Below are positions 1-17,447 of a DNA stretch of 64,000 nt, piece after piece. Made by a program: the position numbers and the translations under genes. The stretch lies in IMG/VR virus record IMGVR_UViG_3300025137_005002, positions 12,479 to 76,478 of that record, one strand, 5' to 3'. Each line of letters opens with the position of its first letter. Position 1 is the stretch's first letter. Origin of the DNA: a virus. The notes beneath the pieces are model-generated. The model ran no database searches. It had not been told where the DNA came from and saw only the letters and a list, made by a program, of their open reading frames with translations.

Positions 1-72
1 GAAGATGAGTGGCATCAAGTAGTTGGACCACACGAGACATGGGATATCTTATTACAAAAGTATACGGACTAA
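1..72 (+). CDS. 3' end of an upstream gene (partial)
   Basis: Frame 1 open from window start (EDEWHQVVGPHETWDILLQKYTD) to TAA at 70-72, immediately before the ATG at 74. Confidence 0.55.
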   Translation, partial: EDEWHQVVGPHETWDILLQKYTD

Positions 73-73
73 T

Positions 74-1426
74 ATGGAACCTGCTGATCCACAAGTAATG
101 AAAAGAAAACTGAATTCAGTTGGCCCTGGATTCTGTTTAGCCAAGTGGACTCAACTTACACTTAACTTACAAAATGGAACTGCTCACAGTTGTCATCACC
201 CACCTGTACACCAAGTGTCTAAAGATGAAATTAAATTAGATCCTAGTTCATTACACAATTCAATATTTAAAAAACAACAACGTAAAGATATGCTCGAAGG
301 TGGCAGACCTAAAGAGTGTGACTACTGTTGGAGAGTTGAAGATGCAGATCCAAATGCATTAAGTGACAGACATTTAAAAAGTGCATTTAGTTGGAGCAAC
401 GAACACTTTGATAAAATTAAAAACAATGATTGGAGTACAAACTTTCAACCTACTTATGTAGAAGTAAGTTTTGGTTATGCTTGTAACTTTAAATGTATGT
501 ATTGTAGTCCTGCTATTAGTAGTGCATGGATGCAAGAAGCAAAGCAACATGGAAGTTTTCCAACCTCTGATAATTACAATGATATCAAATGGTTAGAACG
601 TTCAGGTCGTATGCCGATACCTGAAAGAGAAGAGAATCCATATGTAGATGCATTTTGGAAATGGTGGCCCGACTTATATCCTGCGTTACATACTTTTCGT
701 GTTACAGGCGGTGAACCATTAATGAACAAAAATACTTTCCGTATGATGGATTGGATTATTAATACTGATACACCTAATACAAATTTATTGTTAGGTATTA
801 ATAGTAACTTTTGTGTTGACGACAAACTGTTTAATAAGTTTATTAGTCAAGCACACAAAGTAGTAGATAGTAACAAAGTTCGCAAGTTAGAAGTTTATAC
901 AAGTGCTGAAGCAGTTGGTAATAAAGCAGAGTATATTAGAACTGGATTAGATTACAAGAAGTTTTTTGCTAACGTAGAACGTGTACTAGAAGAATTTAAA
1001 GATAATAATAAATTTATTATTACGTTTATGTGTACTTACAATGCATTGAGTGTAACAACATTTGGTGGCTTCTTAAAAGACCTTATTAAGTTAAGAAAAA
1101 AGTATGGCAGAGATTGTATGTATATTGATATACCATTCTTAAGATATCCCGAAATGATGGACGTTAAAATACTTCCTGGTAGTTTCGAAGAGTATATGAT
1201 TAGTACTGTAGACTACATGGAACAGATGGAAACTGAAGGATTAGTACATAGTAGCGAAACTGCTAAACTTAAACGTATTATAGAATACTGGCGCAGTCAA
1301 CGTACTGTAGACCATAGCAATCATAGAAAAAACTTTAAAGTTTATACTAAAGAACTTGATATTCGCAGAAGCACTAACTTTAAAGAAGTTTTCCCAGAAT
1401 ATGCGGGTTTCTACGATGCAATTTAA
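74..1426 (+). CDS. Radical SAM protein with N-terminal twitch domain (type A)
   Basis: FCLAKW..SCHH..CDYC N-terminal Cys cluster, CNFKCMYC motif, TGGEP; start moved to ATG 74 after upstream stop. Confidence 0.9.
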   Translation: MEPADPQVMKRKLNSVGPGFCLAKWTQLTLNLQNGTAHSCHHPPVHQVSKDEIKLDPSSLHNSIFKKQQRKDMLEGGRPKECDYCWRVEDADPNALSDRHLKSAFSWSNEHFDKIKNNDWSTNFQPTYVEVSFGYACNFKCMYCSPAISSAWMQEAKQHGSFPTSDNYNDIKWLERSGRMPIPEREENPYVDAFWKWWPDLYPALHTFRVTGGEPLMNKNTFRMMDWIINTDTPNTNLLLGINSNFCVDDKLFNKFISQAHKVVDSNKVRKLEVYTSAEAVGNKAEYIRTGLDYKKFFANVERVLEEFKDNNKFIITFMCTYNALSVTTFGGFLKDLIKLRKKYGRDCMYIDIPFLRYPEMMDVKILPGSFEEYMISTVDYMEQMETEGLVHSSETAKLKRIIEYWRSQRTVDHSNHRKNFKVYTKELDIRRSTNFKEVFPEYAGFYDAI

Positions 1427-2621
1427 TACAATTTACATAAATAACATTAGTAAAGAAATTAACCAGCATACTGTTGATGCAATATCAACTAACTGTTATG
1501 ACACTTTAAATGCTGGTACTATGTCCTATGTAGACGAATCACTACATTCCTTGGGCATTAACAATCCGTATTTTATATTTAATGGACCATGTGAATGGTT
1601 CGGATCTTGGTCGGATTCGCGGATAAACTTCGAAGCTCATACCGAAGTGTACTTCTTCCTCTATGAAGTGTTATCAGTATGGCACAATCACTCCAGATAT
1701 AATTGTCCAGATGGTAGTATAAAAAAAGAATGTAAAATCAATGAATTCGAAATGATACAGAACTGGTGCAACAAGCACAACGTTAGTAAGTTCTCTATAT
1801 TTACAAACGAGTATCGTATGTTAGAACAATTACAAAATACAAAATACACCAACTGGGCAATATATCCTTTAGATACATTTAGTCTAGGTTACTGCAAACT
1901 AAATCGTGAACCTAGCAATAATATTCCAGAACAACTTAATTATAAAATAAACTGCTTTACATATCGCTGGGATCAGCACAGACACGCGGCAGTTTCATTT
2001 ATACATAATACACTTCCTAATGATAGTACTATAACACACTGGCATAGAACAGATGATGTATTACTTAAATTTCCGTTAAACACTAGCAAACATTTTGAAG
2101 CATATAGTAAAGGTTGTAAAAGCCTTATGGATTTGTTGCCTATAACAAGAACTGATGCTGAAACTGAATTAGTTAGTATGCAGGATTTTGTTAACCCAAG
2201 TAAAGGAACAATAAATAATATAGCAGGATCAGATAACATAGAAGAAGCATACGAATCATCTTTTGTTACTCTTGCTTGTGAAACTAATTATGAATATCCT
2301 TGGGGACAAATAAGTGAGAAAACTTTAGATCCTATAAAGCAAGGATCTCCAATATTATTATTAGCAGGACCACATAGTTTAGATTTATTAAAACATTGGG
2401 GTCTAAAAACATTTCACGAATTTTGGGACGAAGGCTATGACGAAGAACTAGACCCAATCAAACGAATGGACAAAGTATTTGATATCATTATTGATATTAG
2501 TAATCAATCATATAAAGAACTTACTATAATAAGAAAACATATGAAGCCTATACTTGTCCACAATCGGAACTTAATTAGAACTGGTGCAATTAGAAAACAC
2601 ATAACAAAGGTATTAGCATGA
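1416..2621 (+). CDS. Putative glycosyltransferase (GT-B/GT10-like C-terminal domain)
   Basis: C-terminal ET..ISEKTLDPI..PILLLAG..LK.WG.KTF.EFWDEGYD motif seen in phage GT-like proteins; ATG 1416 overlaps upstream stop. Confidence 0.5.
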   Translation: MQFNTIYINNISKEINQHTVDAISTNCYDTLNAGTMSYVDESLHSLGINNPYFIFNGPCEWFGSWSDSRINFEAHTEVYFFLYEVLSVWHNHSRYNCPDGSIKKECKINEFEMIQNWCNKHNVSKFSIFTNEYRMLEQLQNTKYTNWAIYPLDTFSLGYCKLNREPSNNIPEQLNYKINCFTYRWDQHRHAAVSFIHNTLPNDSTITHWHRTDDVLLKFPLNTSKHFEAYSKGCKSLMDLLPITRTDAETELVSMQDFVNPSKGTINNIAGSDNIEEAYESSFVTLACETNYEYPWGQISEKTLDPIKQGSPILLLAGPHSLDLLKHWGLKTFHEFWDEGYDEELDPIKRMDKVFDIIIDISNQSYKELTIIRKHMKPILVHNRNLIRTGAIRKHITKVLA

Positions 2622-3763
2622 ACATAGGTTGGTTTGGTTTAGGCAAACTTGGAATGATTAGTTCTGAGATGTTAGTTAAGAAGGGGCATACAGTTACAGG
2701 GTATGACAAGGAAGAACGCTTTAGTGGGCTTGTACGAGTGTCTAAGACACCAAAAGAAGCAGTAGTAGGACAGGACTTTGTCTTTGTTGCAGTACAAACT
2801 CCACACCATAAAGACTATGGTGGAGAGAAGCCTATAACACATTTGCCAAACAAAGACTTTGGATTAGACCCTGTCAAAGAATGCTTAAAAGAAATTAACA
2901 AATATGCAACAGAAAATACTATTGTTGTTTTAATCAGTACAATACTTCCTGGAACAACAAGAAGAGAATTCGCAGGCTTATTAGATAAAGCAAGATTAAT
3001 TTATAACCCATACTTAATTGCTATGGGCACAGTTGCTTGGGATATGGTAAATCCAGATATGGTTATCATTGGAGGCAACAAACCAAACGACACTGATGCA
3101 AAAGCATTAATAAAATTTTACAAAACAGTAATGGAGAATGATCCGCATTATAATATTGGTACATGGGAAGAAGCAGAAGCAACAAAAATATTTTATAACA
3201 CATTTATTAGTGCAAGGTTAAGTCTTGTTAATATGATTCAAGACGTTGCCCAAAGTGTTGGGAATATGAATGTTGATGTTGTAACAAATAGTTTAAGTAA
3301 TGCAGGATACCGAATTACCAGTGCCGCTTATATGAAAGCAGGCATGGGCGATGGTGGACCTTGTCACCCTAGAGATAATATTGCCTTAAGACATTTAGCG
3401 GAACGATTAGACCTAGGTTATGACTTGTTCGACGCGATTGCCAAAAGTAGAGAAGTACAAGCCGAACGTATGGCAAAAGAAATATTAAAACATGGAAAGC
3501 AAATTTGCTTTACAAGTGATACATATAAGCCAGGAGTAACATACACTGATGGATCTTATGCACTACTAGTTCAACACTATATTGGAAAGTTGGGTGGAAT
3601 GATTGTTAATGGTTTCGACCATGCAGTTGAAGTTATGGTTATAACTCACCCAACTGACCATAACTTTAATGTTGATAAAGCAACAATAGTTTTTGATCCT
3701 TGGCGTACATACGAAGCCAAAGACCCAAACGTGAAAGTAATACATTATGGAAACACTAGATAA
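2618..3763 (+). CDS. UDP-glucose/GDP-mannose dehydrogenase family protein
   Basis: GxGxxG Rossmann start, AVQTP, STILPGTT, YNP, EATKIFYN, GDGGPCHPRD catalytic Cys, YKP. Confidence 0.9.
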   Translation: MNIGWFGLGKLGMISSEMLVKKGHTVTGYDKEERFSGLVRVSKTPKEAVVGQDFVFVAVQTPHHKDYGGEKPITHLPNKDFGLDPVKECLKEINKYATENTIVVLISTILPGTTRREFAGLLDKARLIYNPYLIAMGTVAWDMVNPDMVIIGGNKPNDTDAKALIKFYKTVMENDPHYNIGTWEEAEATKIFYNTFISARLSLVNMIQDVAQSVGNMNVDVVTNSLSNAGYRITSAAYMKAGMGDGGPCHPRDNIALRHLAERLDLGYDLFDAIAKSREVQAERMAKEILKHGKQICFTSDTYKPGVTYTDGSYALLVQHYIGKLGGMIVNGFDHAVEVMVITHPTDHNFNVDKATIVFDPWRTYEAKDPNVKVIHYGNTR

Positions 3764-4274
3764 ACTTCAACCTCTAGAATATCATACAGTAGAAATTTCT
3801 CCAACTTGGGAAATAGGAGACTACGAAGAGTTTGATTACAAAAGAGTAGAGTATGGAGACTTTAAGCAATTAGCAAAATGGAAGACTGCTGGCTTTACAC
3901 ATGATAACTTTACTGGTATGATGTTTAATGACCAAAAAAGTATTCCACAATGGGCAAAGAATATAGCAACAGTATTAGAATGGAAAGACTGCGGTTTTAC
4001 ATTTTACAAAATGACTACTGGAGATATACTACCGCCACACTCAGACCACTTCAACAAGTATAAAGAACTTTTTGGAATAGAGTCAAGTGATGACGTATTA
4101 CGTGGTTTGGTATTTTTAGAAGATAAAAAGCCAGGACACATTTTTGAAGTAGACCAGTATAGTATGAACTGGCACAAAGGAGGTGCCGTTTTATGGAGAG
4201 GTAGAGTTCCCCATAGTGCAGGCAATATAGGATATGAACCAAGATACACGTTACAAATTACAGGACATTATTAA
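3747..4274 (+). CDS. 2OG-Fe(II) oxygenase-like protein
   Basis: HxD (PPHSD), distal H (PHSAGN) and RYTLQITG strand typical of DSBH oxygenases. Confidence 0.7.
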   Translation: METLDKLQPLEYHTVEISPTWEIGDYEEFDYKRVEYGDFKQLAKWKTAGFTHDNFTGMMFNDQKSIPQWAKNIATVLEWKDCGFTFYKMTTGDILPPHSDHFNKYKELFGIESSDDVLRGLVFLEDKKPGHIFEVDQYSMNWHKGGAVLWRGRVPHSAGNIGYEPRYTLQITGHY

Positions 4275-4935
4275 TCTAGATATTCTAGAGTTATTAAAGG
4301 ACTACGGCGTTGGGTGGAATAATCCTTACGACATCATATACGAGTTTGAAAAAAGACTCGCTGAATACACAGGTGCACCTTATGTAGTTACAACAGATTG
4401 TTGTACACACGCACTTGAACTAGCCCTACGTTGGTATAAAAAGAGACACCCTAGTCATGTACCTTCAATAAAGATACCTGACCAAACATACCTTAGTATT
4501 CCAATGATGCTTGAAAAGGTTGGACTTTCTTTTAGTATTACTGAAGAAGAATGGATTGGTGAGTACCAGTTAGGACCTAATCTTCCTATATGGGATAGTG
4601 CTAGAAGATTACAAAAGAATATGTACGAAGAAGAAACGTTCAAATGCTTGAGTTTTGGACACGGTAAACCATTGACAATTGGCAAAGGAGGTGCTATACT
4701 ATTAGATAGTAGAGAAGCCTATGATTGGCTAATTCGTGCCAGGTACGATGGTAGAGATCTAAAAGTTTCTCCTTGGGATAAAGAACACTACGAAACATTG
4801 GGTTTTCATTACTATATGTCACCAGACCAAGCGGCGATAGGTATAGTTAAGTTAGACCAATACAAAGAAACTGCTCCTAAGAAAGTAGCATATCCAAGTA
4901 TTAAGAAATGTTTCATGATAGGGAATAATAAATGA
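4234..4935 (+). CDS. DegT/DnrJ/EryC1/StrS family PLP aminotransferase (short)
   Basis: FEKRLAEYTGAPYVV..CTHALELAL, WDSA, CLSFGHGKPLTIGKGG (PLP lysine), GFHYYM; start uncertain. Confidence 0.85.
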   Translation: MNQDTRYKLQDIINLDILELLKDYGVGWNNPYDIIYEFEKRLAEYTGAPYVVTTDCCTHALELALRWYKKRHPSHVPSIKIPDQTYLSIPMMLEKVGLSFSITEEEWIGEYQLGPNLPIWDSARRLQKNMYEEETFKCLSFGHGKPLTIGKGGAILLDSREAYDWLIRARYDGRDLKVSPWDKEHYETLGFHYYMSPDQAAIGIVKLDQYKETAPKKVAYPSIKKCFMIGNNK

Positions 4936-5936
4936 TTATAGAATCACATAATGAATGGGATCCATTAAAGAAAGTTATACTAGGAGATGTGCATGGTGCA
5001 AGATTTCCAAAGTACGATGATGTTTTTAATGAAGTTGCTAAACATAGTAAGTGGACAGAAACTGCACAACCAGTTGGACCAATTAACCAAGACATTATTG
5101 ACTTAACAGATCACGAGTTAAGACAGTTTGAAAAAGTATTAGTTGAACTAGGAATTGAAGTTTTACGTCCAAGACAATTAGACTTTCAACAAACTGTACA
5201 TGGATACAGATACTTTGCAGATGGTTTTTATAATTACTGTCCTAGAGATGTTATCCTTGTAATAGGAAACGTTGTAATTGAAACACCAGTATTGTTTCAT
5301 AGTAGGTTTCATGAAACAGAAGCATACCGTGACATTAGACACGAAGCAATGAAGTCAGGTGTTAAATGGATTAGTGCACCAAGACACGCACTACCAGTAC
5401 ATGAAGTATTTGAAGATGGTAAACTTACAGAGAAGACTCCAATCTTTGATGCGGCTAACGTAATGCGTTTTGGTAATGACTTATTATACTTAAAAAGTCA
5501 AACAGGTAATGCCGCAGGTGCCCAATGGTTAAGTACAGTACTTGGACCAGAGTACACAGTTCATATATGGGAAGACGTTTATGCGTATGCTCATATTGAT
5601 AGTACTATCGCGGCACTTAACGAATCAACTCTTTTAATTAACAAACAAAGAGTTAAGCCATCACAGTTACCAAAGTTTTTAAAGAAGCATAAACGAATTT
5701 GGGTTGACAGTGTAGAGGATATGGAGTTTCACAAATATCCATATGCTAGTAATTGGATTGGAATGAATGTGTTAAGCATTGATCCTAAAACAGTTGTCGT
5801 CGATCCTAGACAACCAAAGTTAATTAAGAAATTAGAAAAAGCAAAGTTTGAAGTTATACCTGTACAACTTACACACAGTCGTACATTAGGTGGCGGACAT
5901 CATTGTGCAACATTAGATTTGGAGAGACGAGCATAA
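4932..5936 (+). CDS. Amidinotransferase, StrB1 (inosamine-phosphate amidinotransferase)-like
   Basis: HNEWDPL, YCPRD, FDAANVMRFG, HIDST, WIGMN, LTHSRTLGGGHHCATLD (Asp/His/Cys triad). Confidence 0.92.
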   Translation: MIIESHNEWDPLKKVILGDVHGARFPKYDDVFNEVAKHSKWTETAQPVGPINQDIIDLTDHELRQFEKVLVELGIEVLRPRQLDFQQTVHGYRYFADGFYNYCPRDVILVIGNVVIETPVLFHSRFHETEAYRDIRHEAMKSGVKWISAPRHALPVHEVFEDGKLTEKTPIFDAANVMRFGNDLLYLKSQTGNAAGAQWLSTVLGPEYTVHIWEDVYAYAHIDSTIAALNESTLLINKQRVKPSQLPKFLKKHKRIWVDSVEDMEFHKYPYASNWIGMNVLSIDPKTVVVDPRQPKLIKKLEKAKFEVIPVQLTHSRTLGGGHHCATLDLERRA

Positions 5937-7444
5937 TGTTAACACTAGGAGTTAGTTCAGGATTTCATGATGCCGGATTGGCAGTTGTCGAAGACGGTGA
6001 AGTAGTATTTGCTGGACACAGTGAAAGATACAGTAAACAAAAACACGACAAAGACTTACACCCTGATATTATTAAACAAGCATTGTCATATGGCAAGCCT
6101 GATGTTATTGGGTTTTACGAAACTCCTTGGCTTAAGAAGACTAGAGAGTTATATGCCGGACAAGGTATGTTTGGTGATCGTTCAAGTACATGGACAACTA
6201 AAGGTGCGTTACGTCAACAGTTTGGAGACTTACTTCCTAAAACAAAAATTAAAACATATAGACATCACCAAAGTCATGCGGCGGCAGGATTTCAAACAAG
6301 TCCTTATAATGATGCAACAGTTGTTGTTATCGATGCTATTGGAGAATGGGAAACTATTACTATATGGCACGCCGAATATGATGAGAAGATGAATGCAGTA
6401 TATAAAAAATTGTACAGTCAAAAGTATCCACATAGTATTGGATTATACTATAGTGCTATGACACACAGACTAGGCTTACGTCCACTTGATGAAGAATACA
6501 TTATGATGGGCATGGCTGGTTGGGGTTTACCTACACACTCAAGTAACATACGACAAGCACTAGTACGTGATGATGCTAACACAAAATTTACACAAAACTT
6601 GCACATTGGAGTTGACAATGACTTCTTAAAAGACGTAAACGAATATGAGATAGCCGCAAGTGCTCAAGAAGTTGTTGAAAAACTTATTGATAATGTAATG
6701 GCTAGAGCAAGAGGGTTTAACAAAAGTCGTAATTTAGTTTACATGGGAGGCGTTGCTCTTAACTGTTTATACAATCGTAACTTAGGTAAGTTCTTTGATG
6801 ACGTTTGGATTATGCCTAATCCAGGAGACTGTGGAAGTAGTTTAGGTAGTGCCGCATTAGCATATGGAAGTAGACTTAATTGGGAAACACCATTCTTAGG
6901 AACACCTATTGTTGGCAAGTATCCATCTGAAGAACTAATAGACGAACTACAAAAGAATAAAATTGTAGGAGTAGCAAGTGGTAAAGCAGAGTTTGGTCCA
7001 CGTGCATTAGGTAATAGAAGTTTATTAGCAGACCCTAGAGGTGCAGAAATAAAAGATAAAGTAAATGAGATTAAACGTAGACAAAAGTTTAGACCATTTG
7101 CTCCAATGATATTAGCAGAACACGTTAATGAATATTTTGAAATGCCAGACAAGTTACCAACTAGTCCTTATATGCAAGTGGTAGCAAAGTGTAAAAAGCC
7201 AGAAGAGTTTCCGGCTATTATACACGTCGACGGAACAAGTCGTGTACAAACAGTAGACGAACACTTTCCAAGTGGTGTCAGAGAACTATTAGAGAAATGG
7301 TATGTACTTACAGGCTGTCCTATATTACTTAATACAAGTTTAAATATTAGAGGTGAGCCAATGGTTGATACTAGAGCAGATGCAGATAGATTTGAAAAAG
7401 AATATGGTGTAAAAGTTTGTAGTGATGGTGCAGTAAATGTTTGA
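5936..7444 (+). CDS. Carbamoyltransferase (NodU/CmcH/TobZ family)
   Basis: HDAG, ERYSKQKHD, HHQSHAAAG, DAIGE, GGVALNC, PGDCG, EFGPRALGNRSLLADP, RPFAP, HVDGTSRVQTV, LNTSLN; TAATG coupling. Confidence 0.95.
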   Translation: MLTLGVSSGFHDAGLAVVEDGEVVFAGHSERYSKQKHDKDLHPDIIKQALSYGKPDVIGFYETPWLKKTRELYAGQGMFGDRSSTWTTKGALRQQFGDLLPKTKIKTYRHHQSHAAAGFQTSPYNDATVVVIDAIGEWETITIWHAEYDEKMNAVYKKLYSQKYPHSIGLYYSAMTHRLGLRPLDEEYIMMGMAGWGLPTHSSNIRQALVRDDANTKFTQNLHIGVDNDFLKDVNEYEIAASAQEVVEKLIDNVMARARGFNKSRNLVYMGGVALNCLYNRNLGKFFDDVWIMPNPGDCGSSLGSAALAYGSRLNWETPFLGTPIVGKYPSEELIDELQKNKIVGVASGKAEFGPRALGNRSLLADPRGAEIKDKVNEIKRRQKFRPFAPMILAEHVNEYFEMPDKLPTSPYMQVVAKCKKPEEFPAIIHVDGTSRVQTVDEHFPSGVRELLEKWYVLTGCPILLNTSLNIRGEPMVDTRADADRFEKEYGVKVCSDGAVNV

Positions 7445-8108
7445 TATTATCTTTATGAGTTACGAAGAACCAAATGCAGATAAGCATTGGGACATTGTAA
7501 AGAAAAAGTTTCCATGGAGTAGAAGAAGTCATGGAGTAAAAGGATTACCAAACGCACATCAAGCCTGTGCTAAAATGGCTCGTACAGAAATGTATTATGT
7601 TATAGAAGGCGACAATCTAATTAGTGAAGACTTTGATCCAAGTTTTAAACCAGACAAGTATGGCAAAGATGCAGTGTATGTTTGGCGAGCTCGTAATAGT
7701 GTTAACGATTTAGTTTATGGATACAGTGGTATTAAATTGTTTCCAACGCAAAAAGTATTAGACGTTGATGTGGATAAAGTTGTAGACTTTACTACTGCAA
7801 TTAGTACAAAGTTTGTACCTTATCAAGTTGTAGGTAGTACAGTACATTATGATACTGATCCTTTCAATACTTGGAAGGCGGCATTTAGAGAGTGTACTAA
7901 ACTAACAAGTAAAGTAATACCTGGACAAAAGAACGATGAAGATGATGCTAGACTTCGTACATGGACTACAATAGGCAATGGAGACTTTGGAGACTTTAGT
8001 ATTGCTGGAGCATTGTCTGGTGCAGAGTATGGAAAATACAACAACGACTATAAAAATATTAATGACTGGAAATGGTTAGAGGAAAGATTTGAACAAGAAA
8101 CAAATTAA
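7437..8108 (+). CDS. Putative glycosyltransferase (GT-A-like)
   Basis: DIIFMSYEEPNAD..W, HGVKG..AHQACA, YVIEGDN (DxD-like), YGYSGIKLF, WKAAFRE. Confidence 0.55.
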   Translation: MFDIIFMSYEEPNADKHWDIVKKKFPWSRRSHGVKGLPNAHQACAKMARTEMYYVIEGDNLISEDFDPSFKPDKYGKDAVYVWRARNSVNDLVYGYSGIKLFPTQKVLDVDVDKVVDFTTAISTKFVPYQVVGSTVHYDTDPFNTWKAAFRECTKLTSKVIPGQKNDEDDARLRTWTTIGNGDFGDFSIAGALSGAEYGKYNNDYKNINDWKWLEERFEQETN

Positions 8109-8796
8109 CTTTGTAGACGATAATGATTTATTTGGTCGTATTGGTTTACTTACAGGCGACACATTATTCAACGACTTGCGTAAAGCGAGTGATAACTTAA
8201 ACGCAGACTTTACTGATGCGTTAAGTTGGGGACAATTAAAAAGCAAACGTTGGTTAGTAGACGAGCTAGTTCGTACAGGTGAAGAATTAAGAACTGTATT
8301 TGTCCTAGGAGGATGGTACGGTACGTTAAGTGCTATGTTGTTTAATACTAATATGGTTATTCATTACATAAGAAGTTTTGATATAGACGAAGGATGTCAA
8401 CCTATTGCTGATGCAGTTAATAATACCCATGTACAAAACAACTGGAGATTCAAAGCAGTTATAGAAGATATGCATAATATAAACTATGACGCACACACTT
8501 GGAGTTGTTGGAGTACTAAAAATAGTCGTATGAGTTTTCCAGTTACAGATAGACCCAATACAATTATAAACACTAGTTGCGAACATATAGAAAAGTTTGG
8601 AGAATGGTATTACAATATACCTAAAGGAAAGTTATTAGTATTACAAAGTAACAACTATGATAAGTTACCTGAACACGTTAATTGTGCAACAGGGTTAGAA
8701 CACTTTAGTGAACAGACTCCAATGAGTAAAGTTTTATATCAAGGCGAATTGCCATTAAGCAAGTACACTAGATATATGAGAATAGGAATTAAGTAG
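8089..8796 (+). CDS. Class I SAM-dependent methyltransferase-like protein
   Basis: VFVLGGWYG motif I, SFDID, INTSCEH. Confidence 0.65.
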   Translation: MNKKQINFVDDNDLFGRIGLLTGDTLFNDLRKASDNLNADFTDALSWGQLKSKRWLVDELVRTGEELRTVFVLGGWYGTLSAMLFNTNMVIHYIRSFDIDEGCQPIADAVNNTHVQNNWRFKAVIEDMHNINYDAHTWSCWSTKNSRMSFPVTDRPNTIINTSCEHIEKFGEWYYNIPKGKLLVLQSNNYDKLPEHVNCATGLEHFSEQTPMSKVLYQGELPLSKYTRYMRIGIK

Positions 8797-9080
8797 TGGG
8801 ATTTAATTTTTGGCAATCGATCCCACAACAAGAAAGGACAATCAAAATGAATGAAGTATTCATCCCCTATAGTTTTAGAACACGCAGAGGTGCTAGAATT
8901 ACAAATGAAAGATATACAGAAGGCAAAAGCCTTTGGGAATCAACAAAAGAGTTTTGCAAGAACAATGTAAAGAACAAGTATGTTGTAGACAATACTGTTT
9001 ACGGTAAAGGTGTTCGTGTTGAACTTGAAGATGAAGCAGACGTAGAAGTGATACACGCATGGATCAACAAGAACTCATAG
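8796..9080 (+). CDS. Hypothetical protein
   Basis: ORF coupled to upstream stop; alternative ATG at 8847. Confidence 0.55.
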   Translation: MGFNFWQSIPQQERTIKMNEVFIPYSFRTRRGARITNERYTEGKSLWESTKEFCKNNVKNKYVVDNTVYGKGVRVELEDEADVEVIHAWINKNS

Positions 9081-9292
9081 AAGGATTATCTACGAGAGAA
9101 TTGCAAAAGGAAAGTGCAAAAGCACTAGCCACGATGAGTGCAACCAGTGTTAACATTCATCAGTTTAACAAACAAGCACACCATAATAGTTGGAACTGGT
9201 ACAAAGCAGTAATAAAATGGTATGTAGAACAACACGGCGACTTACCCAGCAAAGTCGGACCAGGTAAAGATGTAAGGCTTATATGGGAGTAA
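9059..9292 (+). CDS. Hypothetical protein
   Basis: ORF within coupled gene run. Confidence 0.6.
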   Translation: MDQQELIEGLSTRELQKESAKALATMSATSVNIHQFNKQAHHNSWNWYKAVIKWYVEQHGDLPSKVGPGKDVRLIWE

Positions 9293-9510
9293 GAGTAATT
9301 AAGTATGCCAGTGCTTGTTTTATTTTAGTAGCAATGGTATTTCATGTAGCAGGTATTACTCCTTGGAATAGTATACTGCAATTAATAGGAGCATCAGGTT
9401 GGGTCTACGTAGGATATAAATGGAATGAGAAAGCAATTATACTTAACTTTCTTCCACAGTTCTTTATAATCATACCTATGCTTGTTTATATATATTGGAT
9501 AATAAAATGA
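9283..9510 (+). CDS. Small membrane protein
   Basis: Three hydrophobic segments. Confidence 0.65.
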   Translation: MGVRVIKYASACFILVAMVFHVAGITPWNSILQLIGASGWVYVGYKWNEKAIILNFLPQFFIIIPMLVYIYWIIK

Positions 9511-9608
9511 TAGAAGATATGTTTTTTATAAGTGACTTTGAAATACTAGTTTATACACTAGTGTTTGGTATAGGATTTTTACTTTACATGATGTGGAATG
9601 AAAGATGA
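9507..9608 (+). CDS. Small membrane peptide (33 aa)
   Basis: ATGA overlaps at both ends; one hydrophobic stretch. Confidence 0.5.
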   Translation: MIEDMFFISDFEILVYTLVFGIGFLLYMMWNER

Positions 9609-10360
9609 ATATAACAATAGCAGGATATGGATTTGTAGGCAGAGCAGTAGATACATTTGTTGGAACTAAACATTCAACGTTTATTGTAGACCCTGCTTAT
9701 AATGAAAATACAATATCTTCAATGAGTTGCGATGCAGTTATTATATGTGTAAGTACACCAGCAAATACAAACGGTAGTTGCGATATGACTAACGTTATTA
9801 ATGTAATTAGCGATGCACCGGATGTACCTATATTAATAAAGAGTACAATCAGTATAGAAGGCTGGCGTAAACTTAAAGAACTGTTTCCTAAAAAAGACAT
9901 AGCATTCAGTCCAGAGTTTCTAAGAGCTAACACTGCCGAGTTAGATTTTGTTTCACAAGATAAAATGTATGTAAGTGAAAGCACTAATCATTTTTGGGTT
10001 GAATTCTTTAAAGGAATAAAACCAACACTATCTATTTTTTATGGCAATGCAGAAGAATTAATTATAACAAAGTATATGCGTAATAGTTTTTTAGCAACTA
10101 AAGTAAGTTTCTTTAATCAAGTATTTGACTTATGTGAGTCATTAGGTGTAGACTTTGAAACTGTTAGACGTTATACTACAGAAGACAGTCGTATAACAGA
10201 CAGTCATAGTTATGTAACAGACGAACGAGGATTTGCTGGACATTGTTTTCCAAAGGATACTCAGGCTATATTAAAAACTGCAAACGAAGCCGGCTATGAT
10301 TTAAGTCTAGTTAGAGAAGCAGTACAGTATAATGAAAGAGTTAAGTGGACTAAGAAATGA
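9605..10360 (+). CDS. UDP-glucose 6-dehydrogenase-like protein lacking the C-terminal domain
   Basis: GYGFVG, ICVSTP, IKST, FSPEFLR, KYMRNSFLATKVSFFN, GFAGHCFPKD. Confidence 0.85.
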   Translation: MNITIAGYGFVGRAVDTFVGTKHSTFIVDPAYNENTISSMSCDAVIICVSTPANTNGSCDMTNVINVISDAPDVPILIKSTISIEGWRKLKELFPKKDIAFSPEFLRANTAELDFVSQDKMYVSESTNHFWVEFFKGIKPTLSIFYGNAEELIITKYMRNSFLATKVSFFNQVFDLCESLGVDFETVRRYTTEDSRITDSHSYVTDERGFAGHCFPKDTQAILKTANEAGYDLSLVREAVQYNERVKWTKK

Positions 10361-10698
10361 AATTAGATGTATTAGATATAGGCGGAGAGGTAGTTAAAGA
10401 CAATGACACCTACTTACTTAAAGACAATAAGACTTTAAAAAATCTTGTTGTTAGTAGTACAGATTTAAAACCCAATAGAAGTACTACGGGCCATGCACAC
10501 GTTGGACAAGAAGAAGTCTATTACTTTGTAAGTGGCTGGGGAACAATGGAACTTATTAGCACAAACGGAAAAGTAACAAGTCACGATGTTAAACCTGGTA
10601 CTGTAATTTTAATTGAAGATGGATTCTTTCATAGAGTTCATGCAGGTAGTGACGGTTGTTATTTTGTTTGTGTGTTTGATGGAAAGAGAAATCATTAG
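10357..10698 (+). CDS. Cupin domain protein
   Basis: GHAH..QEEVYYF..G.G and FHRV cupin motifs. Confidence 0.85.
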   Translation: MKLDVLDIGGEVVKDNDTYLLKDNKTLKNLVVSSTDLKPNRSTTGHAHVGQEEVYYFVSGWGTMELISTNGKVTSHDVKPGTVILIEDGFFHRVHAGSDGCYFVCVFDGKRNH

Positions 10699-10862
10699 TG
10701 AAATGGTTTGATTATTTAAGTATTTACTGGCACACCAAAGCATTACATTTTGGAATTAAACTTTGGATGTTTGGAGTATGGTATGGATTACCTATCGTAG
10801 TAGCCAGTTGGTGGACTTGGAGAGTATATGAAGAATGTAGAAGAAAGAGTTTATTAAGATGA
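10698..10862 (+). CDS. Small Trp-rich membrane peptide (54 aa)
   Basis: GTG overlaps upstream TAG, TGA overlaps downstream ATG. Confidence 0.5.
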   Translation: MKWFDYLSIYWHTKALHFGIKLWMFGVWYGLPIVVASWWTWRVYEECRRKSLLR

Positions 10863-11275
10863 AAGTAGGAATAACATTTAGTACATTTGATTTGTTACAC
10901 GCAGGACATATTGCTATGTTGCGTGATGCAAAGGAACAGTGTGATTACTTAATTGTTGGACTACAAAGTGATCCTACTATTGATAGACCAGATACAAAGA
11001 ACAAACCAATACAAACAATGTTTGAAAGATACTTACAATTAAAAGCAGTTGAGTATGTTAACGAAGTTATACCTTATCAAACAGAACAAGATTTAGAAGA
11101 CATTCTACGAACGTTAAATATCAATGTAAGGATACTTGGCGAAGAGTATAGAGATAAAGACTTTACAGGTAAAGACATTTGTAGATCCAGAGATATCGAA
11201 CTATACTTTAACAAACGAGATCATAGGTTTAGTACAACTGATCTTAGAAAGAGAGTTAGAAGTGAAGGAGTATAA
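10859..11275 (+). CDS. tagD: Glycerol-3-phosphate cytidylyltransferase-like (TagD family)
   Basis: TFDLLHAGH (HxGH), LIVGL, ER, RFSTT. Confidence 0.85.
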   Translation: MKVGITFSTFDLLHAGHIAMLRDAKEQCDYLIVGLQSDPTIDRPDTKNKPIQTMFERYLQLKAVEYVNEVIPYQTEQDLEDILRTLNINVRILGEEYRDKDFTGKDICRSRDIELYFNKRDHRFSTTDLRKRVRSEGV

Positions 11276-11470: not shown

Positions 11471-12556
11471 GTGTATAGCATACAAGACATTGATACAGTT
11501 CATTTAGAGATTACGCAGAAGTGCCAAGCCGCCTGTCCAATGTGCGACAGGAATATGAACGGTAAAGGACTTAACCCACATATTAATCTAGACGAACTTA
11601 CATTAGATGATTGTAAAAAGATATTCACAGTTGACTTTGTTAAACAACTAAAGTCAATGTATATGTGTGGTAACCTGGGAGACCCCATTGTTGCTACAGA
11701 CACACTTGAAGTATTTGAATACTTTAGACAACACAATCCAAACATATGGTTAAGCATGAACACTAACGCAGGTGCTAAGAAACCTGAGTGGTGGGCAAGG
11801 TTGGCAGAAGTGTTTGGTAAACACGGACACGTTATCTTCAGTGTAGATGGATTGAAAGACACTAACCATTTATACCGTCAAGGTGTAAGTTGGAAGATAG
11901 TTGAACAATCAATGAAGGCGTTTATTGATGCAGGTGGCAAAGCACGTTGGGACTTTCTTATTTTTGAACACAATCAACACCAAGTAGAAGAAGCCAAAGC
12001 AATGGCAGACTCTCTAGGGTTTGAAAGTTTTGTTAGTAAGAAGACTGGACGATTTGTAACTGCAACAACAGAGAAAAAAGAAAGCCACCAAGCCAAAGAC
12101 CGTAAAGGTAAAGACAGCACAGAACTTAAAAAGCCTGATGCTAAATATTTAAACAAAGCATTAAAACAACAAGACGAACTAGTCAACAAACACGGTAGTA
12201 TGGATGCCTATTACGATAGAGCATCAATCGTATGTAAAGTTTCGAACTCTACTACTAAAAGTTTATATATCAGTGCCGAAGGGCTGGCACTTCCTTGTTG
12301 TTGGACTGCTGGACGTATGTATAAATGGTGGCATAAAGATCCTAAGAAAGAAGAACCTGTTTGGGACTTTATTGAACGTGCTGGTGGCAAAGATAAAGTT
12401 GATGCTAGATACGGATTAGATAAAGTATTCAATACAGGTATTTTTGATGACATCGCTAACAGTTGGAGTAAGCCAAGTTGTGGCGATGGTAAACTTAAAG
12501 TATGTGCCATGAAGTGTGGATCTGAATTTGATCCATTCGCGGAGCAGTTTAAGTAA
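11471..12556 (+). CDS. Radical SAM protein with C-terminal twitch domain (type B)
   Basis: CQAACPMC, CGNLGDP, FSVDGL, HNQHQ, C..LPCC..CAMKC. Confidence 0.9.
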   Translation: MYSIQDIDTVHLEITQKCQAACPMCDRNMNGKGLNPHINLDELTLDDCKKIFTVDFVKQLKSMYMCGNLGDPIVATDTLEVFEYFRQHNPNIWLSMNTNAGAKKPEWWARLAEVFGKHGHVIFSVDGLKDTNHLYRQGVSWKIVEQSMKAFIDAGGKARWDFLIFEHNQHQVEEAKAMADSLGFESFVSKKTGRFVTATTEKKESHQAKDRKGKDSTELKKPDAKYLNKALKQQDELVNKHGSMDAYYDRASIVCKVSNSTTKSLYISAEGLALPCCWTAGRMYKWWHKDPKKEEPVWDFIERAGGKDKVDARYGLDKVFNTGIFDDIANSWSKPSCGDGKLKVCAMKCGSEFDPFAEQFK

Positions 12557-13713
12557 TGAAAAAATTTGTTTATGTAGAAGATATCAAACGTATTGAGTTT
12601 GGTATTACTAGTCTGTGTAATGCAGGTTGTCCAATGTGTGCAAGACATATTGATGGAACTAGTATTGTTAAACCAGACTTACCTCTACGAAGTATATCAA
12701 TTGATGACTTTATAAAGATTTCAGAAGACATAGGAGTACATACAAGAAAGGTTAACTGTAACCTTTGTGGTACAGTTGGTGATCCTATAGCACACCCACA
12801 GATAGAAAAGATACTTCACTATGGTGCAGAGAAATATAAAGTTGTTACACTTGATACAAATGGTAGTTTAAGAGATACAAAATTTTGGACTCGTCTAGGA
12901 GAAAAGCATCAACAGGTTATTAAAGACGGAGAAGGTAGACGGGGTATAGAAGTTAACTTTAGTATAGATGGTTTAGAAGATACTAATCAACTATATCGTA
13001 TTAATACAGACTACAATAAGATTATAGAGAACGCACAGGCATTTATTAACGCAGGTGGCAAGGCTATATGGAAGTTTATTATATTTGAACACAATGAACA
13101 TCAAGTTAGCGAAGCAAAGCAAAGAGCTGAAGACATGGGCTTTGCAGAATTCTCAACACTAGTAAGTAGCAGGTTTAGATTAAACACAGGCGAAGCAGTT
13201 AGTGTAGATAGTTATAAGAAGAAGGTGAATGCACCAAGTCGTGAGAAAGTAGAACAAACTCAAGACAAGCAATTCAACCTTAAAGCAAGTGATAAGTACA
13301 GTAACAAAGAAGTTACAGACTGGTATATCAAATTTGCTAAACCAGGCAATCAAGAGAAAGAACTAGCAGAAGCAACGTATGACATTAACTGTAAGAGTAT
13401 CGATAAAGGTTACTTGTACATAGACGAAGTTGCTAGACTCTGGCCTTGTTGTCACTTTCATGGTGGACTAACAGGACACACGTTTAGAAGGTTCTGGGCA
13501 GACATTGAAAAGCAGTATGGTAAAGACTTTAACAGTTTAAGAACAAGTACGTTACACCAACTATTAGATCACGATTACTTTAAAGAGTATTTGCCTAACA
13601 GTTGGGTCAATCCACAAGAATACAAACTTTGCAAAAAGTGTGTGCAAGTATGTGACAAGAGCAAAGGCATGAATAAAGATGCACAACAAAAGGCATATAC
13701 GGAATTAAGATGA
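12556..13713 (+). CDS. Radical SAM protein with C-terminal twitch domain (type B)
   Basis: CNAGCPMC, CGTVGDP, FSIDGL, HNEHQ, WPCC..CKKCVQVC. Confidence 0.9.
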   Translation: MKKFVYVEDIKRIEFGITSLCNAGCPMCARHIDGTSIVKPDLPLRSISIDDFIKISEDIGVHTRKVNCNLCGTVGDPIAHPQIEKILHYGAEKYKVVTLDTNGSLRDTKFWTRLGEKHQQVIKDGEGRRGIEVNFSIDGLEDTNQLYRINTDYNKIIENAQAFINAGGKAIWKFIIFEHNEHQVSEAKQRAEDMGFAEFSTLVSSRFRLNTGEAVSVDSYKKKVNAPSREKVEQTQDKQFNLKASDKYSNKEVTDWYIKFAKPGNQEKELAEATYDINCKSIDKGYLYIDEVARLWPCCHFHGGLTGHTFRRFWADIEKQYGKDFNSLRTSTLHQLLDHDYFKEYLPNSWVNPQEYKLCKKCVQVCDKSKGMNKDAQQKAYTELR

Positions 13714-15122: not shown

Positions 15123-15126
15123 TGCT

Positions 15127-16260
15127 ATGTCTTTATGTAACGCACCTTTTACCAATTTATACTACTCAAGCAATACAAAACAAGTTGCGTTCTGTTGTGA
15201 TATGGAACGACAACCTATAAAGACTAGTATTAACGACTGGTGGAACAGTGACTACAGTAAACAAATAAGACAAATGATGCTGGATAGAAAGTATCCTGTG
15301 GCTTGTAAAAGTTGTGCTCGAGCAGATAGCCTAGGACTTGAACCTCACAGTCGCAGTTTCGATAGTCAAACAATTCCCAAAGACATAACTAAACCAACTA
15401 GCATAGACTATAGACCAGATAACCTTTGTAATCTACAGTGTACAATGTGTAGTCCTGTAAGCAGTAACCTAGTAGAACAGTTATGGAGCAAGTATCCAGA
15501 CGTGTTTGGCGGAGTTACACCTGTGCCTAAAGACGAAGGTATGGATCAACAGTTAATGAACACACTGGATAAACAAACAGTGGCACTAAAAGTACTAGGT
15601 GGAGAACCTACTATTAACAAAAGAGTACACGAAGTATTCAAGTACTGTATTGATAATGGATACGCAGAGAACATCGACTTGCGTATGACTACTAACTTTA
15701 CTAACATGAACAGAACATACGAACTGTTAGAACAATTTAAGACAGTAAAGATAGGTGCTAGTTTAGATGCTACAGGCCCAACATACGAATATATAAGACA
15801 ACCTGCTAAATGGAACAGTGTAAAGAATCATATACTAGACTTTAGCAAAAGATACACAGGCAATAAAAAATTTAAATTAAGTGTTAACATGGTATGGCAA
15901 CCTACTAGTGCATTTACTGTAAAGACTTGGTTACCCGAACTGTTTGACTTATTCTACAATCAAGTAACAGTAAGAACTACACAGATAGATATACTACCTG
16001 TAAGTCCACATCATACTAACTGGGCAAGTGTACCCACACACTTGAGATCAAGTATAATCCAAGACTTGGATAGCGTCACTTGTACTAACAGTGAACAACT
16101 ACAGATTGTAAGAGATATGAAACAGATAGCCAGTAGTTATGAACCTTATAGTTTAAGTGAACAACAAAAGTTTAAACAATGGACACTGCAAATGGACAAG
16201 CACAAAAAAACAAACATACTAGAACTAGATCCTAGGTTTAAGGAACTGTTAGAATGCTAG
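15127..16260 (+). CDS. Radical SAM protein with N-terminal twitch domain (type A)
   Basis: LCNAPF..FCC..CKSC; CNLQCTMC; LGGEP. Confidence 0.9.
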   Translation: MSLCNAPFTNLYYSSNTKQVAFCCDMERQPIKTSINDWWNSDYSKQIRQMMLDRKYPVACKSCARADSLGLEPHSRSFDSQTIPKDITKPTSIDYRPDNLCNLQCTMCSPVSSNLVEQLWSKYPDVFGGVTPVPKDEGMDQQLMNTLDKQTVALKVLGGEPTINKRVHEVFKYCIDNGYAENIDLRMTTNFTNMNRTYELLEQFKTVKIGASLDATGPTYEYIRQPAKWNSVKNHILDFSKRYTGNKKFKLSVNMVWQPTSAFTVKTWLPELFDLFYNQVTVRTTQIDILPVSPHHTNWASVPTHLRSSIIQDLDSVTCTNSEQLQIVRDMKQIASSYEPYSLSEQQKFKQWTLQMDKHKKTNILELDPRFKELLEC

Positions 16261-16820: not shown

Positions 16821-16821
16821 T

Positions 16822-17067: not shown

Positions 17068-17079
17068 GTAAGTATTAAT

Positions 17080-17407: not shown

Positions 17408-17447
17408 ACTCTAGCAAAAACCCAAAAAAAATCTGTAGCAAAAATTT

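Follow-up and report, generated by a model that had tools for sequence, protein, structure and literature searches.

What does a giant marine phage make with a streptomycin-type amidinotransferase? The window analyzed here, a 64,000-nt stretch of DNA, comes from an uncultured marine giant phage. It carries a conserved, tightly packed operon centered on this enzyme (Table 1). The original prediction described seven adjacent, coupled genes at 2618-8796. The ORFs match these coordinates exactly, lie on the + strand, and overlap their neighbors by 1 to 41 nt. Five of the seven predicted labels were confirmed (dehydrogenase, 2OG oxygenase, DegT, amidinotransferase, and carbamoyltransferase). Two others, "GT-like" and "methyltransferase," were not.

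Table 1. Features of the cassette and its surroundings in the window.
Position	Strand	Feature	Evidence
23..1426	+	N-terminal-twitch radical SAM enzyme, first gene of the coupled run (context)	NCBIfam NF033640
1356..2621	+	GT-B-fold glycosyltransferase-like protein	AF2 model and Foldseek; outside 2618-8796, in conserved core
2618..3763	+	Divergent NDP-sugar 6-dehydrogenase-family enzyme (DH1)	Pfam PF03721 (UDPG_MGDP_dh_N) and PF00984 over cut-off
3747..4274	+	Small 2OG/Fe(II) oxygenase, 175 aa, AspH-like cupin type	Pfam PF05118 (Asp_Arg_Hydrox)
4234..4935	+	Truncated DegT/DnrJ/EryC1/StrS-type PLP enzyme, 233 aa	Pfam PF01041, E 1.2e-18, 68 bits
4932..5936	+	StrB1-type L-arginine amidinotransferase	PDB 1bwd, E 4.7e-82
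5903..7444	+	NodU/TobZ/NovN-type O-carbamoyltransferase	Pfam PF16861, E 4e-53; PF02543, E 1e-36
7437..8108	+	Widespread, uncharacterized domain partnering radical SAM enzymes	Gene neighborhoods
8089..8796	+	Phage protein, possible methyltransferase fold (lead only)	Atlas lead 0.95
8796..9510	+	Three small ORFs (94, 77, and 75 aa)	Last is a DUF6552 membrane protein
9605..10360	+	Second, shorter UGDH-family protein (DH2), 251 aa	Pfam PF00984, E 2e-24; PF03721; PHROG 9148
10357..10698	+	Small cupin	Pfam Cupin_1/Cupin_2, E 2e-6
10859..11275	+	RfaE-domain-II/TagD-like nucleotidyltransferase	Pfam CTP_transf_like, E 1e-15; PHROG 7878, E 4.7e-36
11471..36050	+	Array of ~20 radical SAM genes, same strand block continued (context)	Pfam Radical_SAM/SPASM

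Nine other related viral contigs, one of them 306 kb, share the gene order, and all cassette genes are under purifying selection (dN/dS 0.06-0.25). The cassette is therefore more than a chance arrangement. Linkage of the genes holds in every relative. Near-identical DNA was found in seawater metagenomes from at least 8 studies and in RNA libraries from 2 studies. A core of GT-B-like protein, dehydrogenase, oxygenase, and amidinotransferase recurs on unrelated, probably phage, contigs. There it has no aminotransferase, which counts against a sugar pathway. Among cultured phages, Synechococcus phage S-SCSM2R and Campylobacter phage CP220 carry parts of the cassette. At the DNA level, the dehydrogenase and carbamoyltransferase genes match pelagiphages and cyanophages.

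Residues 2-332 of the amidinotransferase align to residues 3-339 of StrB1, the L-arginine:inosamine-phosphate amidinotransferase of Streptomyces griseus. Both have the short form of ~335-350 aa. The catalytic triad is intact (D106, H221, and C325 on StrB1 D108, H227, and C332). The predicted motif-by-motif likeness is borne out, with HNEWDPL, GARxP, YCPRD, FDAANVxRFGxDLLYL, and QLTHSRTLGGGxHCATLD all present in the 1bwd alignment. The enzyme is StrB1-type and not AGAT-type (279 bits versus 155-176 for AGAT, SxtG, and HsvA). Its dN/dS is 0.06-0.11. It has 6,721 homologs. StrB1 is no nearer to it than are thousands of StrB1-like proteins from the environment, so the similarity does not fix the substrate. 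Unlike StrB1, the enzyme is phage-borne, and in every case a small 2OG oxygenase is coupled to it.

The oxygenase is the constant partner of the amidinotransferase. It lies directly 5' of it in loci L018, L034, L039, L052, and L056 and in S-SCSM2R. Its PF05118 score was 24.4 bits (cut-off, 22.6). H98 (H98-x-D100), D100, H156, and R166 are invariant across 10 homologs (alignment A5).

DH1 matches PHROG 9148 (E 7.6e-81), and its residues 43-290 match UGDH structures (E 1e-16). It contains a GxGxxG motif and the catalytic Cys249 in GGPCHPRD. The UDP-binding domain PF03720 was not detected in it, and its NCBIfam TIGR03026 score was below cut-off. In the DegT-type enzyme, K144 in SFGHGK falls on the family PLP lysine in the PDB alignment, and dN/dS is 0.10-0.15. 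It has no C-terminal domain and is of equal length in all relatives. The absent domain normally helps hold the nucleotide sugar. These gaps in DH1 and the DegT-type enzyme count against a sugar pathway. The carbamoyltransferase matches PHROG 1601 (E 2e-98) and, in the PDB, NovN (3e-51), GdmN, and TobZ (2e-36). Its start is likely ATG 5936, judging by a TAATG overlap and an upstream GGAGAG.

Two genes precede DH1. The radical SAM enzyme matches NF033640 with E 3.4e-96 and 322.7 bits (cut-off, 170), and its homolog in Ralstonia jumbo phage RsoM2USA is 37.5% identical. The GT-B-fold protein probably starts at ATG 1416. It has no Pfam or PDB match by sequence. Every top Foldseek match of its AF2 model (alignment A3; pLDDT 71, pTM 0.75) is a GT-B enzyme (E 2.5e-5, prob 1.0). 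VIA-align Z-scores were 11.9 for the phage HY126 glycosyltransferase, 11.3 for EXT1, and 11.0 and 9.8 for the T4 beta- and alpha-glucosyltransferases. These neighbors are tied among DNA-, protein-, and polymer-directed enzymes, and the tie counts against a sugar pathway. Homologs adjoin the dehydrogenase, oxygenase, and amidinotransferase in L018, L052, and L056.

The partner of the last two cassette genes is a radical SAM enzyme and not the amidinotransferase, and the leads for their predicted labels are weak. For 7437-8108, no Pfam, PHROG, or PDB match was found, and the sole support for "GT-like" was an atlas lead of 0.87. Its domain occurs in 1,237 representative clusters, often as 2 to 8 copies in tandem, and is fused to a Radical_SAM domain in P0280. 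In RsoM2USA, its homolog comes right after the N-twitch radical SAM gene and is followed by the 8089 homolog; a paralog precedes the radical SAM gene. The 8089 protein has 3,051 homologs, with a Pfam domain in 0 of the top 120. "Methyltransferase" had only the atlas lead behind it, which points to a viral cluster with Methyltransf_31 in 21% of its members. Both genes may form a radical SAM submodule and would not be amidination steps.

Downstream, most related loci extending that far contain homologs of the 77-aa and 75-aa ORFs. The 94-aa ORF has no match in those loci. DH2 carries the canonical GHCFPKD Cys, and no DH2 homolog was detected in L006/L007. The nucleotidyltransferase contains HxGH and RFSTT motifs. 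An NTP_transferase lies upstream (L069:7467-8192), and these two genes give the block its nucleotide-activation functions. The same contig also carries QueD- and QueE-like genes. In the 306-kb relative, neither a Pfam GT1 or GT2 match above cut-off nor an initiating phosphoglycosyl transferase turned up, which counts against a sugar pathway.

The StrB1-type enzyme, the linkage kept in relatives, and the nucleotide-sugar neighbors make a guanidino/carbamoyl sugar the most economical product. These neighbors are two UGDH-family genes, the DegT-type PLP enzyme, the RfaE/TagD-like nucleotidyltransferase, the NTP_transferase, and the GT-B-fold protein. The cassette probably makes a sugar bearing both groups and hands it to a glycosyltransferase. 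We infer both product and target, and we give a probability of roughly 0.5 to a phage nucleotide-sugar tailoring pathway that passes this sugar to the GT-B protein, most likely for a glycoconjugate acceptor. Also in its favor are the purifying selection, the core on unrelated contigs, the related gene runs of S-SCSM2R and CP220, the host recognition island of marine T4-like phages, and the seawater DNA and RNA matches.

It is unlikely that the product is a free small molecule. Here the substrate of the amidinotransferase and carbamoyltransferase would be a metabolite, either amino-acid-derived or a pseudo-sugar, that is glycosylated by the GT-B protein and released, for example, as an antimetabolite or aminoglycoside-like compound against the host or competing phages. 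The nearest carbamoyltransferase structures are natural-product enzymes. A NodU-type carbamoyltransferase lies near a StrB1-like gene in 18 of 55 cellular loci, and those from Pseudomonas and Paraburkholderia correspond to the gvg cluster, published as the source of 4-formylaminooxyvinylglycine (gvgD, amidinotransferase; gvgF, carbamoyltransferase; PMC8064604). As in the cassette, the two genes adjoin. The gvg substrate is a small amino acid, so the pair alone is no proof of sugar chemistry, and it counts against a sugar pathway. S-SCSM2R encodes homologous genes in ORF305-ORF310: a short DegT-like protein (ORF305, a 195-aa "AHBA synthase," 38% identical), a 2OG oxygenase (26%; E 7e-19), and a StrB1-like amidinotransferase (37%). 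Its authors named them antibiotic synthesis genes, a proposal made without experiments (PMC12801897). The run also holds a radical SAM gene and a GT gene and is flanked by glycosyltransferases (one GT2). S-SCSM2R is a T4-like cyanophage and not a jumbo phage, and tblastn against the run gave neither a carbamoyltransferase nor a UGDH-type gene. The jumbo-phage amidinotransferases form a clade (99% support) apart from the gvg clade (100% support). By tblastn with the window cassette genes, gvg-type loci share nothing further, neither the sugar enzymes nor the radical SAMs. The cassette has no evident exporter or resistance gene, and ~20 radical SAM paralogs suit polymer editing better.

The original prediction also offered a cationic hypermodification of DNA that would block nucleases, in which case the decorated sugar would be placed on a modified base of phage DNA. 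This is improbable, since no base-hydroxylating or base-exchange enzyme was detected. Searches of this contig and the 87%-complete 306-kb relative gave no ThyA-type hydroxymethylase/hydroxylase (thymidylate-synthase homolog), TGT/DpdA, or C5 DNA methylase. The QueD- and QueE-like genes and the T4 glucosyltransferase matches are in its favor. So is the HY126 match, a candidate DNA-acting enzyme only, from a phage whose DNA bears arabinosylated 5-hydroxycytosine (PMC13326640). However, the GT-B Z-scores are level with those of non-DNA GT-B enzymes. The oxygenase is AspH-like by Pfam, and a Tet_JBP genome search gave no match, though its control failed. CP220 has fully modified DNA and a distant version of the module, which favors the reading, but its known modification, 7-amido-7-deazaguanine, requires none of these genes. 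The radical SAM and "glycine amidinotransferase" genes of CP220/CPt10 have been described as an interchangeable module with no assigned function (Timms et al. 2010, PMC2853527). Like the cassette, it combines several same-subfamily radical SAMs, a pentein-fold amidinotransferase, and glycosyltransferase-like genes (two GT-A-like), with PAP2 also at the CP220 locus. The CP220 amidinotransferase is only 26% identical to that of the window. By tblastn, the dehydrogenase, DegT-type enzyme, and carbamoyltransferase gave no match at the CP220 locus, and the small ORF upstream of its amidinotransferase is not detectably the cassette's oxygenase.

Modification of a ribosomal peptide or virion protein is equally doubtful. 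The radical SAM, oxygenase, and amidinotransferase would alter side chains, for example, lysine or ornithine to homoarginine or arginine. Peptide maturation is typical of SPASM/twitch radical SAM enzymes, and AspH-type oxygenases hydroxylate protein residues. The small ORFs at 8796-9510 sit within the block, and the S-SCSM2R virion proteome includes a second amidinotransferase and a prolyl hydroxylase (PMC12801897). However, the cassette yielded no precursor peptide, leader-recognition domain, or protease, and five to seven block genes of nucleotide-sugar enzyme families are left unexplained. Database and literature searches found no protein-directed member of the StrB1/AGAT family.

The aminocyclitol half of the predicted product gained no support, and the sugar half was supported in part. 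A streptidine/bluensidine-like route on a phosphorylated inosamine would fit StrB1 as the best solved relative and the adjacent DegT-type enzyme and carbamoyltransferase, for which the bluensidine logic calls. It is very improbable because searches for a cyclitol synthase or kinase in this contig and the 87%-complete relative came back empty (Inos-1-P synthase, DHQ/DOI-type synthase, and APH-type kinase), the dehydrogenase is of the UGDH family, and StrB1 likeness leaves the substrate unfixed.

In marine T4-like phages, a hypervariable host recognition island is known to house sugar genes and radical SAM cassettes. In pelagimyophages and cyanomyophages, this cluster includes rfaE and UDP-glucose dehydrogenase along with glycosyltransferases and the radical SAM cassettes (Zaragoza-Solas et al. 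2020, PMC7029224). The paper does not mention a carbamoyltransferase, and the passages searched do not mention an amidinotransferase. The likeness to the cassette is in gene content.

If the cassette tailors a nucleotide sugar, the UGDH-family dehydrogenase would oxidize an NDP-sugar that is host-derived or phage-activated. The amine may already be there or may be put in by the truncated DegT-type enzyme. The amidino group of L-arginine would pass to Cys325 and then to the sugar amine, giving a guanidino group. The oxygenase may hydroxylate the substrate or product of this amidination. With carbamoyl phosphate and ATP, the TobZ/NodU-type enzyme would O-carbamoylate a hydroxyl. The GT-B-fold protein would then move the decorated sugar to its acceptor. 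This would most likely be a glycoconjugate, either a virion protein or a cell-envelope glycan, and the flanking radical SAM enzymes may edit it further.

The cassette consists of seven open reading frames, found exactly where the original prediction placed them. All are on the + strand, and neighbors overlap by 1 to 41 nt. The cassette is one portion of a far longer coupled block.

Features of the cassette, its surroundings and related contigs (window coordinates unless another contig is named)
Feature	Contig	Coordinates	Strand	Match or position
N-terminal-twitch radical SAM gene	window		+	NF033640, E 3e-96; upstream of cassette
GT-B-fold gene (1356), 400 aa, not annotated	window	1356-2621	+	upstream of cassette
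First dehydrogenase (DH1)	window	2618-3763	+	PHROG "UDP-glucose dehydrogenase," 8e-81
2OG oxygenase, 175 aa	window	3747-4274	+	just above Pfam AspH-type hydroxylase cutoff
DegT-type gene, 233 aa	window	4234-4935	+	Pfam, 68 bits (cutoff 19.8)
Amidinotransferase	window	4932-5936	+	StrB1 (PDB 1bwd), E 4.7e-82
Carbamoyltransferase	window	5936-7444 (start probable)	+	Carbam_trans_N, 127 bits (cutoff 24); Carbam_trans_C, 180 bits (cutoff 27)
Gene 7437	window	7437-8108	+
Gene 8089	window	8089-8796	+
Small ORFs	window			downstream of cassette, first in order
Second UGDH-like gene (DH2)	window	9605-10360		downstream, after small ORFs
Cupin	window			downstream, after DH2
RfaE/TagD-like nucleotidyltransferase	window			downstream, after cupin
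About 20 radical SAM genes, many with SPASM/twitch signals	window	11471-36515	+	one block, cassette at its 5' end
NifU-like gene and AMP-binding fragment	window			after radical SAM genes of the block
QueE-like radical SAM gene adjoining QueD-like gene	window	55080-56467	-	PHROG 2076, E 4e-53 (QueE-like)
Inserted radical SAM-like gene	L008	12513-13553		between carbamoyltransferase and 7437 homolog
Gap of size matching the L008 insertion	L009	~12516-13706		same place as in L008
Three paralogous DUF6071 genes	L069	4186-5058, 6580-7317, 8177-8884		ahead of cluster
NTP_transferase gene	L069	7467-8192		ahead of cluster
Two StrB1-like amidinotransferase genes	L017	10001-11002, 12283-13284		1.3 kb apart

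The window spans bases 12479-76478 of its IMG/VR viral contig, which is 76.5 kb long and 21% complete (CheckV). Its source is a jumbo phage, because a close relative contig is 306.7 kb at 87% completeness. PHROG matches in the - strand block (exonuclease, ATPase, HNH endonuclease and a tail-fibre-like protein) agree with this phage identity. The - strand also carries a QueE-like radical SAM gene beside one of the 6-pyruvoyl-tetrahydropterin-synthase fold (QueD-like). For this 7-deazaguanine-type pair, TGT/DpdA was not found in the present contig or the 306 kb relative. The GC content was 30 to 38% across the window and showed no shift at the cassette. At least eight studies contributed seawater and marine metagenomes that contain near-identical DNA, and metagenomic homologs were found at 47 to 72% identity. 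The contig upstream of the window (L069) contains DUF6071 and NTP_transferase genes, and the 306 kb relative (L070) has a weak GT2-like signal upstream of the cluster.

The amidinotransferase aligns with StrB1 from end to end. It matches AGAT, SxtG and HsvA at E values of about 1e-45 to 1e-51, with 155 to 176 bits against 279 bits for StrB1. The proposal that it is StrB1-type rather than a glycine amidinotransferase is thus borne out. This closeness is read from bit scores against PDB rather than from a tree. The five StrB1 motifs quoted in the original prediction are all present in the 1bwd alignment. D106, H221 and C325 align on StrB1 D108, H227 and C332, and this catalytic Cys-His-Asp triad is invariant in the homolog alignment (A1). 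We predict that the protein is an active member of the StrB1/AGAT pentein-fold family. A cyanobacterial contig from a Leptolyngbyaceae MAG (L017) carries two StrB1-like copies.

Four further labels held, namely the dehydrogenase, oxygenase, DegT-type protein and carbamoyltransferase. DH1 contains the NAD-binding (PF03721; 61.6 bits) and central (PF00984; 56.7 bits) domains. Its best PDB relatives are UGDH structures, and the catalytic cysteine of the UDP-glucose/GDP-mannose dehydrogenase family is present in GGPCHPRD. The C-terminal UDP-binding domain PF03720 was not found with Pfam, and TIGR03026 scored 137 bits, under the NCBIfam cutoff of 189.8. DH1 is therefore a divergent member of the family. 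The oxygenase has H98-x-D100, H156 and R166, which are invariant in ten homologs and are the residues that typically bind iron and 2-oxoglutarate. Its family profile had no match among PDB sequences.

The DegT-type protein places K144, in SFGHGK, on the PLP lysine of the family. It falls short of the two-domain DegT architecture (about 360 to 400 aa), and the C-terminal domain is absent. It is 233 aa in all relatives and 195 aa in the cultured Synechococcus phage S-SCSM2R. Its constant length in relatives and its dN/dS of 0.10 to 0.15 mark it as a maintained short form rather than a broken gene. The carbamoyltransferase is closest in structure to NovN, GdmN and TobZ (E 3e-51 to 2e-36). Translation of its gene probably begins from the ATG at 5936, a codon overlapping the amidinotransferase stop.

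The labels "GT-like" for gene 7437 and "methyltransferase" for gene 8089 were not verified, since neither gene has a match in Pfam, PHROG or PDB. The atlas lead for 7437 was GT2 and weak (0.87). That for 8089 was methyltransferase and moderate (0.95), from a cluster with Methyltransf_31 in 21% of members. A single-sequence fold of 7437 reached a pLDDT of 34, and its family profile had no match among PDB sequences. It cannot be called a glycosyltransferase, because hhalign comparison of its profile with GT-A-like proteins from S-SCSM2R and from Campylobacter phage CP220 was not significant (<1% probability). The 7437 domain is widespread (1,237 representative clusters) and has no Pfam family; it is often repeated in tandem, with 2 to 8 copies per protein and protein lengths reaching 1,789 aa (P0151 to P0300). 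In one metagenomic protein (P0280) it is fused to a Radical_SAM domain. Ralstonia jumbo phage RsoM2USA has, in order, a 7437 paralog, an N-twitch radical SAM, a 7437 homolog and an 8089 homolog. In addition, two relatives of the window's phage appear to have one more radical SAM gene immediately ahead of the 7437 gene. We assign both genes to a radical SAM sub-module.

A glycosyltransferase candidate was found immediately upstream of the cassette. Gene 1356 was modeled from 27 homologs (pTM 0.75), and the top of the Foldseek list contained GT-B enzymes only (prob 1.0). VIA-align gave Z scores of 10 to 12 over about 270 to 280 residues, with 234 chains at Z of at least 8. The top rows were effectively tied: phage HY126 glycosyltransferase (11.9), exostosin GT47 (11.3), T4 beta-glucosyltransferase (11.0), GT10 fucosyltransferase (11.0) and TarM (10.9). 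The modeled protein is a two-Rossmann-domain GT-B glycosyltransferase fold. The assignment is limited to fold because a sequence-family match is absent: the protein and its profile had no Pfam or PDB sequence match, 21 members of its family had none in Pfam, and no homolog was found among 50,697 phage records.

The predicted linkage of the cassette genes was confirmed in nine other viral contigs, which retain the same order from the first radical SAM gene to the first array genes. The amidinotransferase is 83 to 98% identical across these contigs, and gene gains and losses are minor. The second dehydrogenase was not seen in two of the loci (L006 and L007) and the cupin was not seen in L008, which carries an inserted radical SAM-like gene; L009 has a gap at the same place. 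The absences and the insertion indicate that the cassette varies through entire genes being gained or lost. Purifying selection was seen on each of the nine genes tested (dN/dS 0.06 to 0.25). Promoter and terminator scans gave signals at or near chance. Two studies provided metatranscriptome libraries with contigs that map to the cassette, mostly at 99% identity or more, and those of one sample cover 30/30 bins of window positions 1 to 12000. This coverage fits expression; DNA carry-over into the libraries could also account for it.

Parts of the cassette occur elsewhere. On five MAG contigs a small oxygenase gene directly precedes the amidinotransferase gene, the two overlapping by 4 nt. A GT-B-like gene adjoins the pair in three of the five and a dehydrogenase in two, and the best-covered contig looks phage-like. 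The minimal core appears to be a GT-B-like protein, a 2OG oxygenase and an amidinotransferase, without any aminotransferase. Two contigs from one Haliscomenobacter MAG (L018 and L052) share the order GT-B-like gene, dehydrogenase, oxygenase, amidinotransferase, UvdE-size ORF and 558-aa ORF. Pfam matches on L052 are to UvdE, to DnaE in split form and to a metallophosphoesterase. The two contigs resemble a pair of related phages that ended up in a bacterial bin and, being phage-like, are no evidence of a cellular origin.

A lead in Bdellovibrionota was dropped: the 10 kb around each of the four loci with the phylum's nearest amidinotransferase homologs contained none of the other cassette genes. 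A Bacteriovorax MAG (L081 to L084) encodes three N-twitch radical SAMs above the NF033640 cutoff, a carbamoyltransferase (29% identity) and an 8089 homolog (33%), all on contigs other than that of its StrB1-like gene.

Two cultured phages have related clusters. S-SCSM2R encodes a run of short DegT-like protein (38% identity), radical SAM, glycosyltransferase, oxygenase (E 7e-19), amidinotransferase (37% identity) and GT2. The CP220 amidinotransferase (26% identity) is surrounded by a PAP2 phosphatase gene, two GT-A-like genes and five radical SAM genes belonging to the same subfamily. In the account of Timms et al., the cluster is an interchangeable module with no function assigned (PMC2853527). 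The oxygenase pairing does not extend to CP220, because hhalign of the oxygenase profile against gp085 was not significant (<1% probability).

The enzyme families, their catalytic residues, and the coupling, conservation and selection of the genes are established by the results above. We infer that the cassette makes a tailored NDP-sugar carrying guanidino and carbamoyl groups, which the GT-B-fold protein delivers; we give this reading even odds (about 0.5). DH1 would oxidize an NDP-sugar. The amine would be pre-existing or made by the short PLP enzyme, and the amidinotransferase would pass the amidino group of arginine to it via Cys325. The coupled oxygenase may hydroxylate the substrate or the product, and the carbamoyltransferase would O-carbamoylate a hydroxyl. 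The GT-B-fold protein would then hand the sugar unit to an acceptor, which the radical SAM enzymes encoded beside the cassette would edit as well.

A free metabolite is an unlikely product. The authors of the S-SCSM2R report named the homologs antibiotic synthesis genes, without experiments (PMC12801897). A StrB1-like gene adjoins a NodU-type carbamoyltransferase in actinomycetes and also in Pseudomonas and Paraburkholderia, whose loci match the gvg cluster, which makes formylaminooxyvinylglycine. They have only these two genes in common with the phage cassette. The cassette was rejected as a gvg cluster; its amidinotransferase lies outside the gvgD clade, and the other gvg genes were not found. 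In the tree, the jumbo-phage clade (99% support) and the gvg clade (100% support) are far apart, so the pairing with a carbamoyltransferase arose independently in phage. The jumbo-phage clade joins the oxygenase-adjacent group on a weakly supported branch (85).

DNA, which the original prediction offered as a target for hypermodification, is a doubtful acceptor. The best structural neighbor of the GT-B model is an enzyme of a phage with glycosylated DNA, and known glycosylated-base systems of the T4, RB69 and HY126 types begin with ThyA homologs, TGT/DpdA or a C5 methylase plus TET (PMC13326640). The thymidylate synthase homolog PF00303, TGT/DpdA PF01702 and C5 DNA methylase PF00145 were absent from the present contig and the 306 kb relative, with control genomes positive. 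The DNA reading is disfavored because these base-creating enzymes, on which the known systems rely, are absent. A search for PF12851 (Tet_JBP) was uninformative, its control having no match. It is improbable that the cassette and the GT-B-fold protein add a cationic guanidino- and carbamoyl-bearing sugar to the phage's own DNA by an entry route not yet described. Such a route could run from base hydroxylation by the AspH-like oxygenase to glycosylation. DNA hypermodification would thereby gain a new chemical class.

Protein or peptide side chains are likewise improbable acceptors. Neither an initiating phosphoglycosyl transferase nor a Pfam GT1 or GT2 over cutoff was found in the present contig or the 87%-complete relative, and the phage does not have a self-contained lipid-linked polysaccharide pathway. 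In marine T4-like phages, sugar genes and radical SAM cassettes are known to occupy a hypervariable host-recognition island (PMC7029224). At the DNA level, pelagiphages and cyanophages contain matches to the dehydrogenase and the carbamoyltransferase of the cassette.

Of the two products first proposed, the sugar is kept and the aminocyclitol is very improbable: inositol-1-phosphate synthase (PF01658), DHQ/DOI-type synthase (PF01761; controls positive for both) and APH-type kinase (PF01636, the kinase family searched) are absent from the present contig and the 306 kb relative. Where that pathway has a full-length StsC-like aminotransferase, the cassette has the 233-aa DegT-family protein without the C-terminal domain.

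Amidinotransferases with radical SAMs and glycosyltransferases have already been noted in phages (PMC2853527, PMC12801897). The cassette enzymes are new members of known families, and the carbamoyltransferase, the UGDH-type genes and a defined GT-B-like partner are the additions in this version.

Guanidino sugars are known so far mainly in actinomycete antibiotics. If abundant marine jumbo phages, and more distantly cyanophages and Campylobacter phages, produce such a sugar and attach it to the virion, the host surface or DNA, it would be a new cationic decoration. It may bear on host recognition, superinfection exclusion and defense evasion. Bench tests are feasible for the minimal core, made up of the GT-B-like protein, the small 2OG oxygenase and the amidinotransferase. 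S-SCSM2R, CP220 and, for the 7437/8089 sub-module, RsoM2USA are the cultured carriers. Phages carry large radical SAM arrays that, to our knowledge, have lacked an explanation since 2010. A guanidino sugar would give the first chemical foothold on them.
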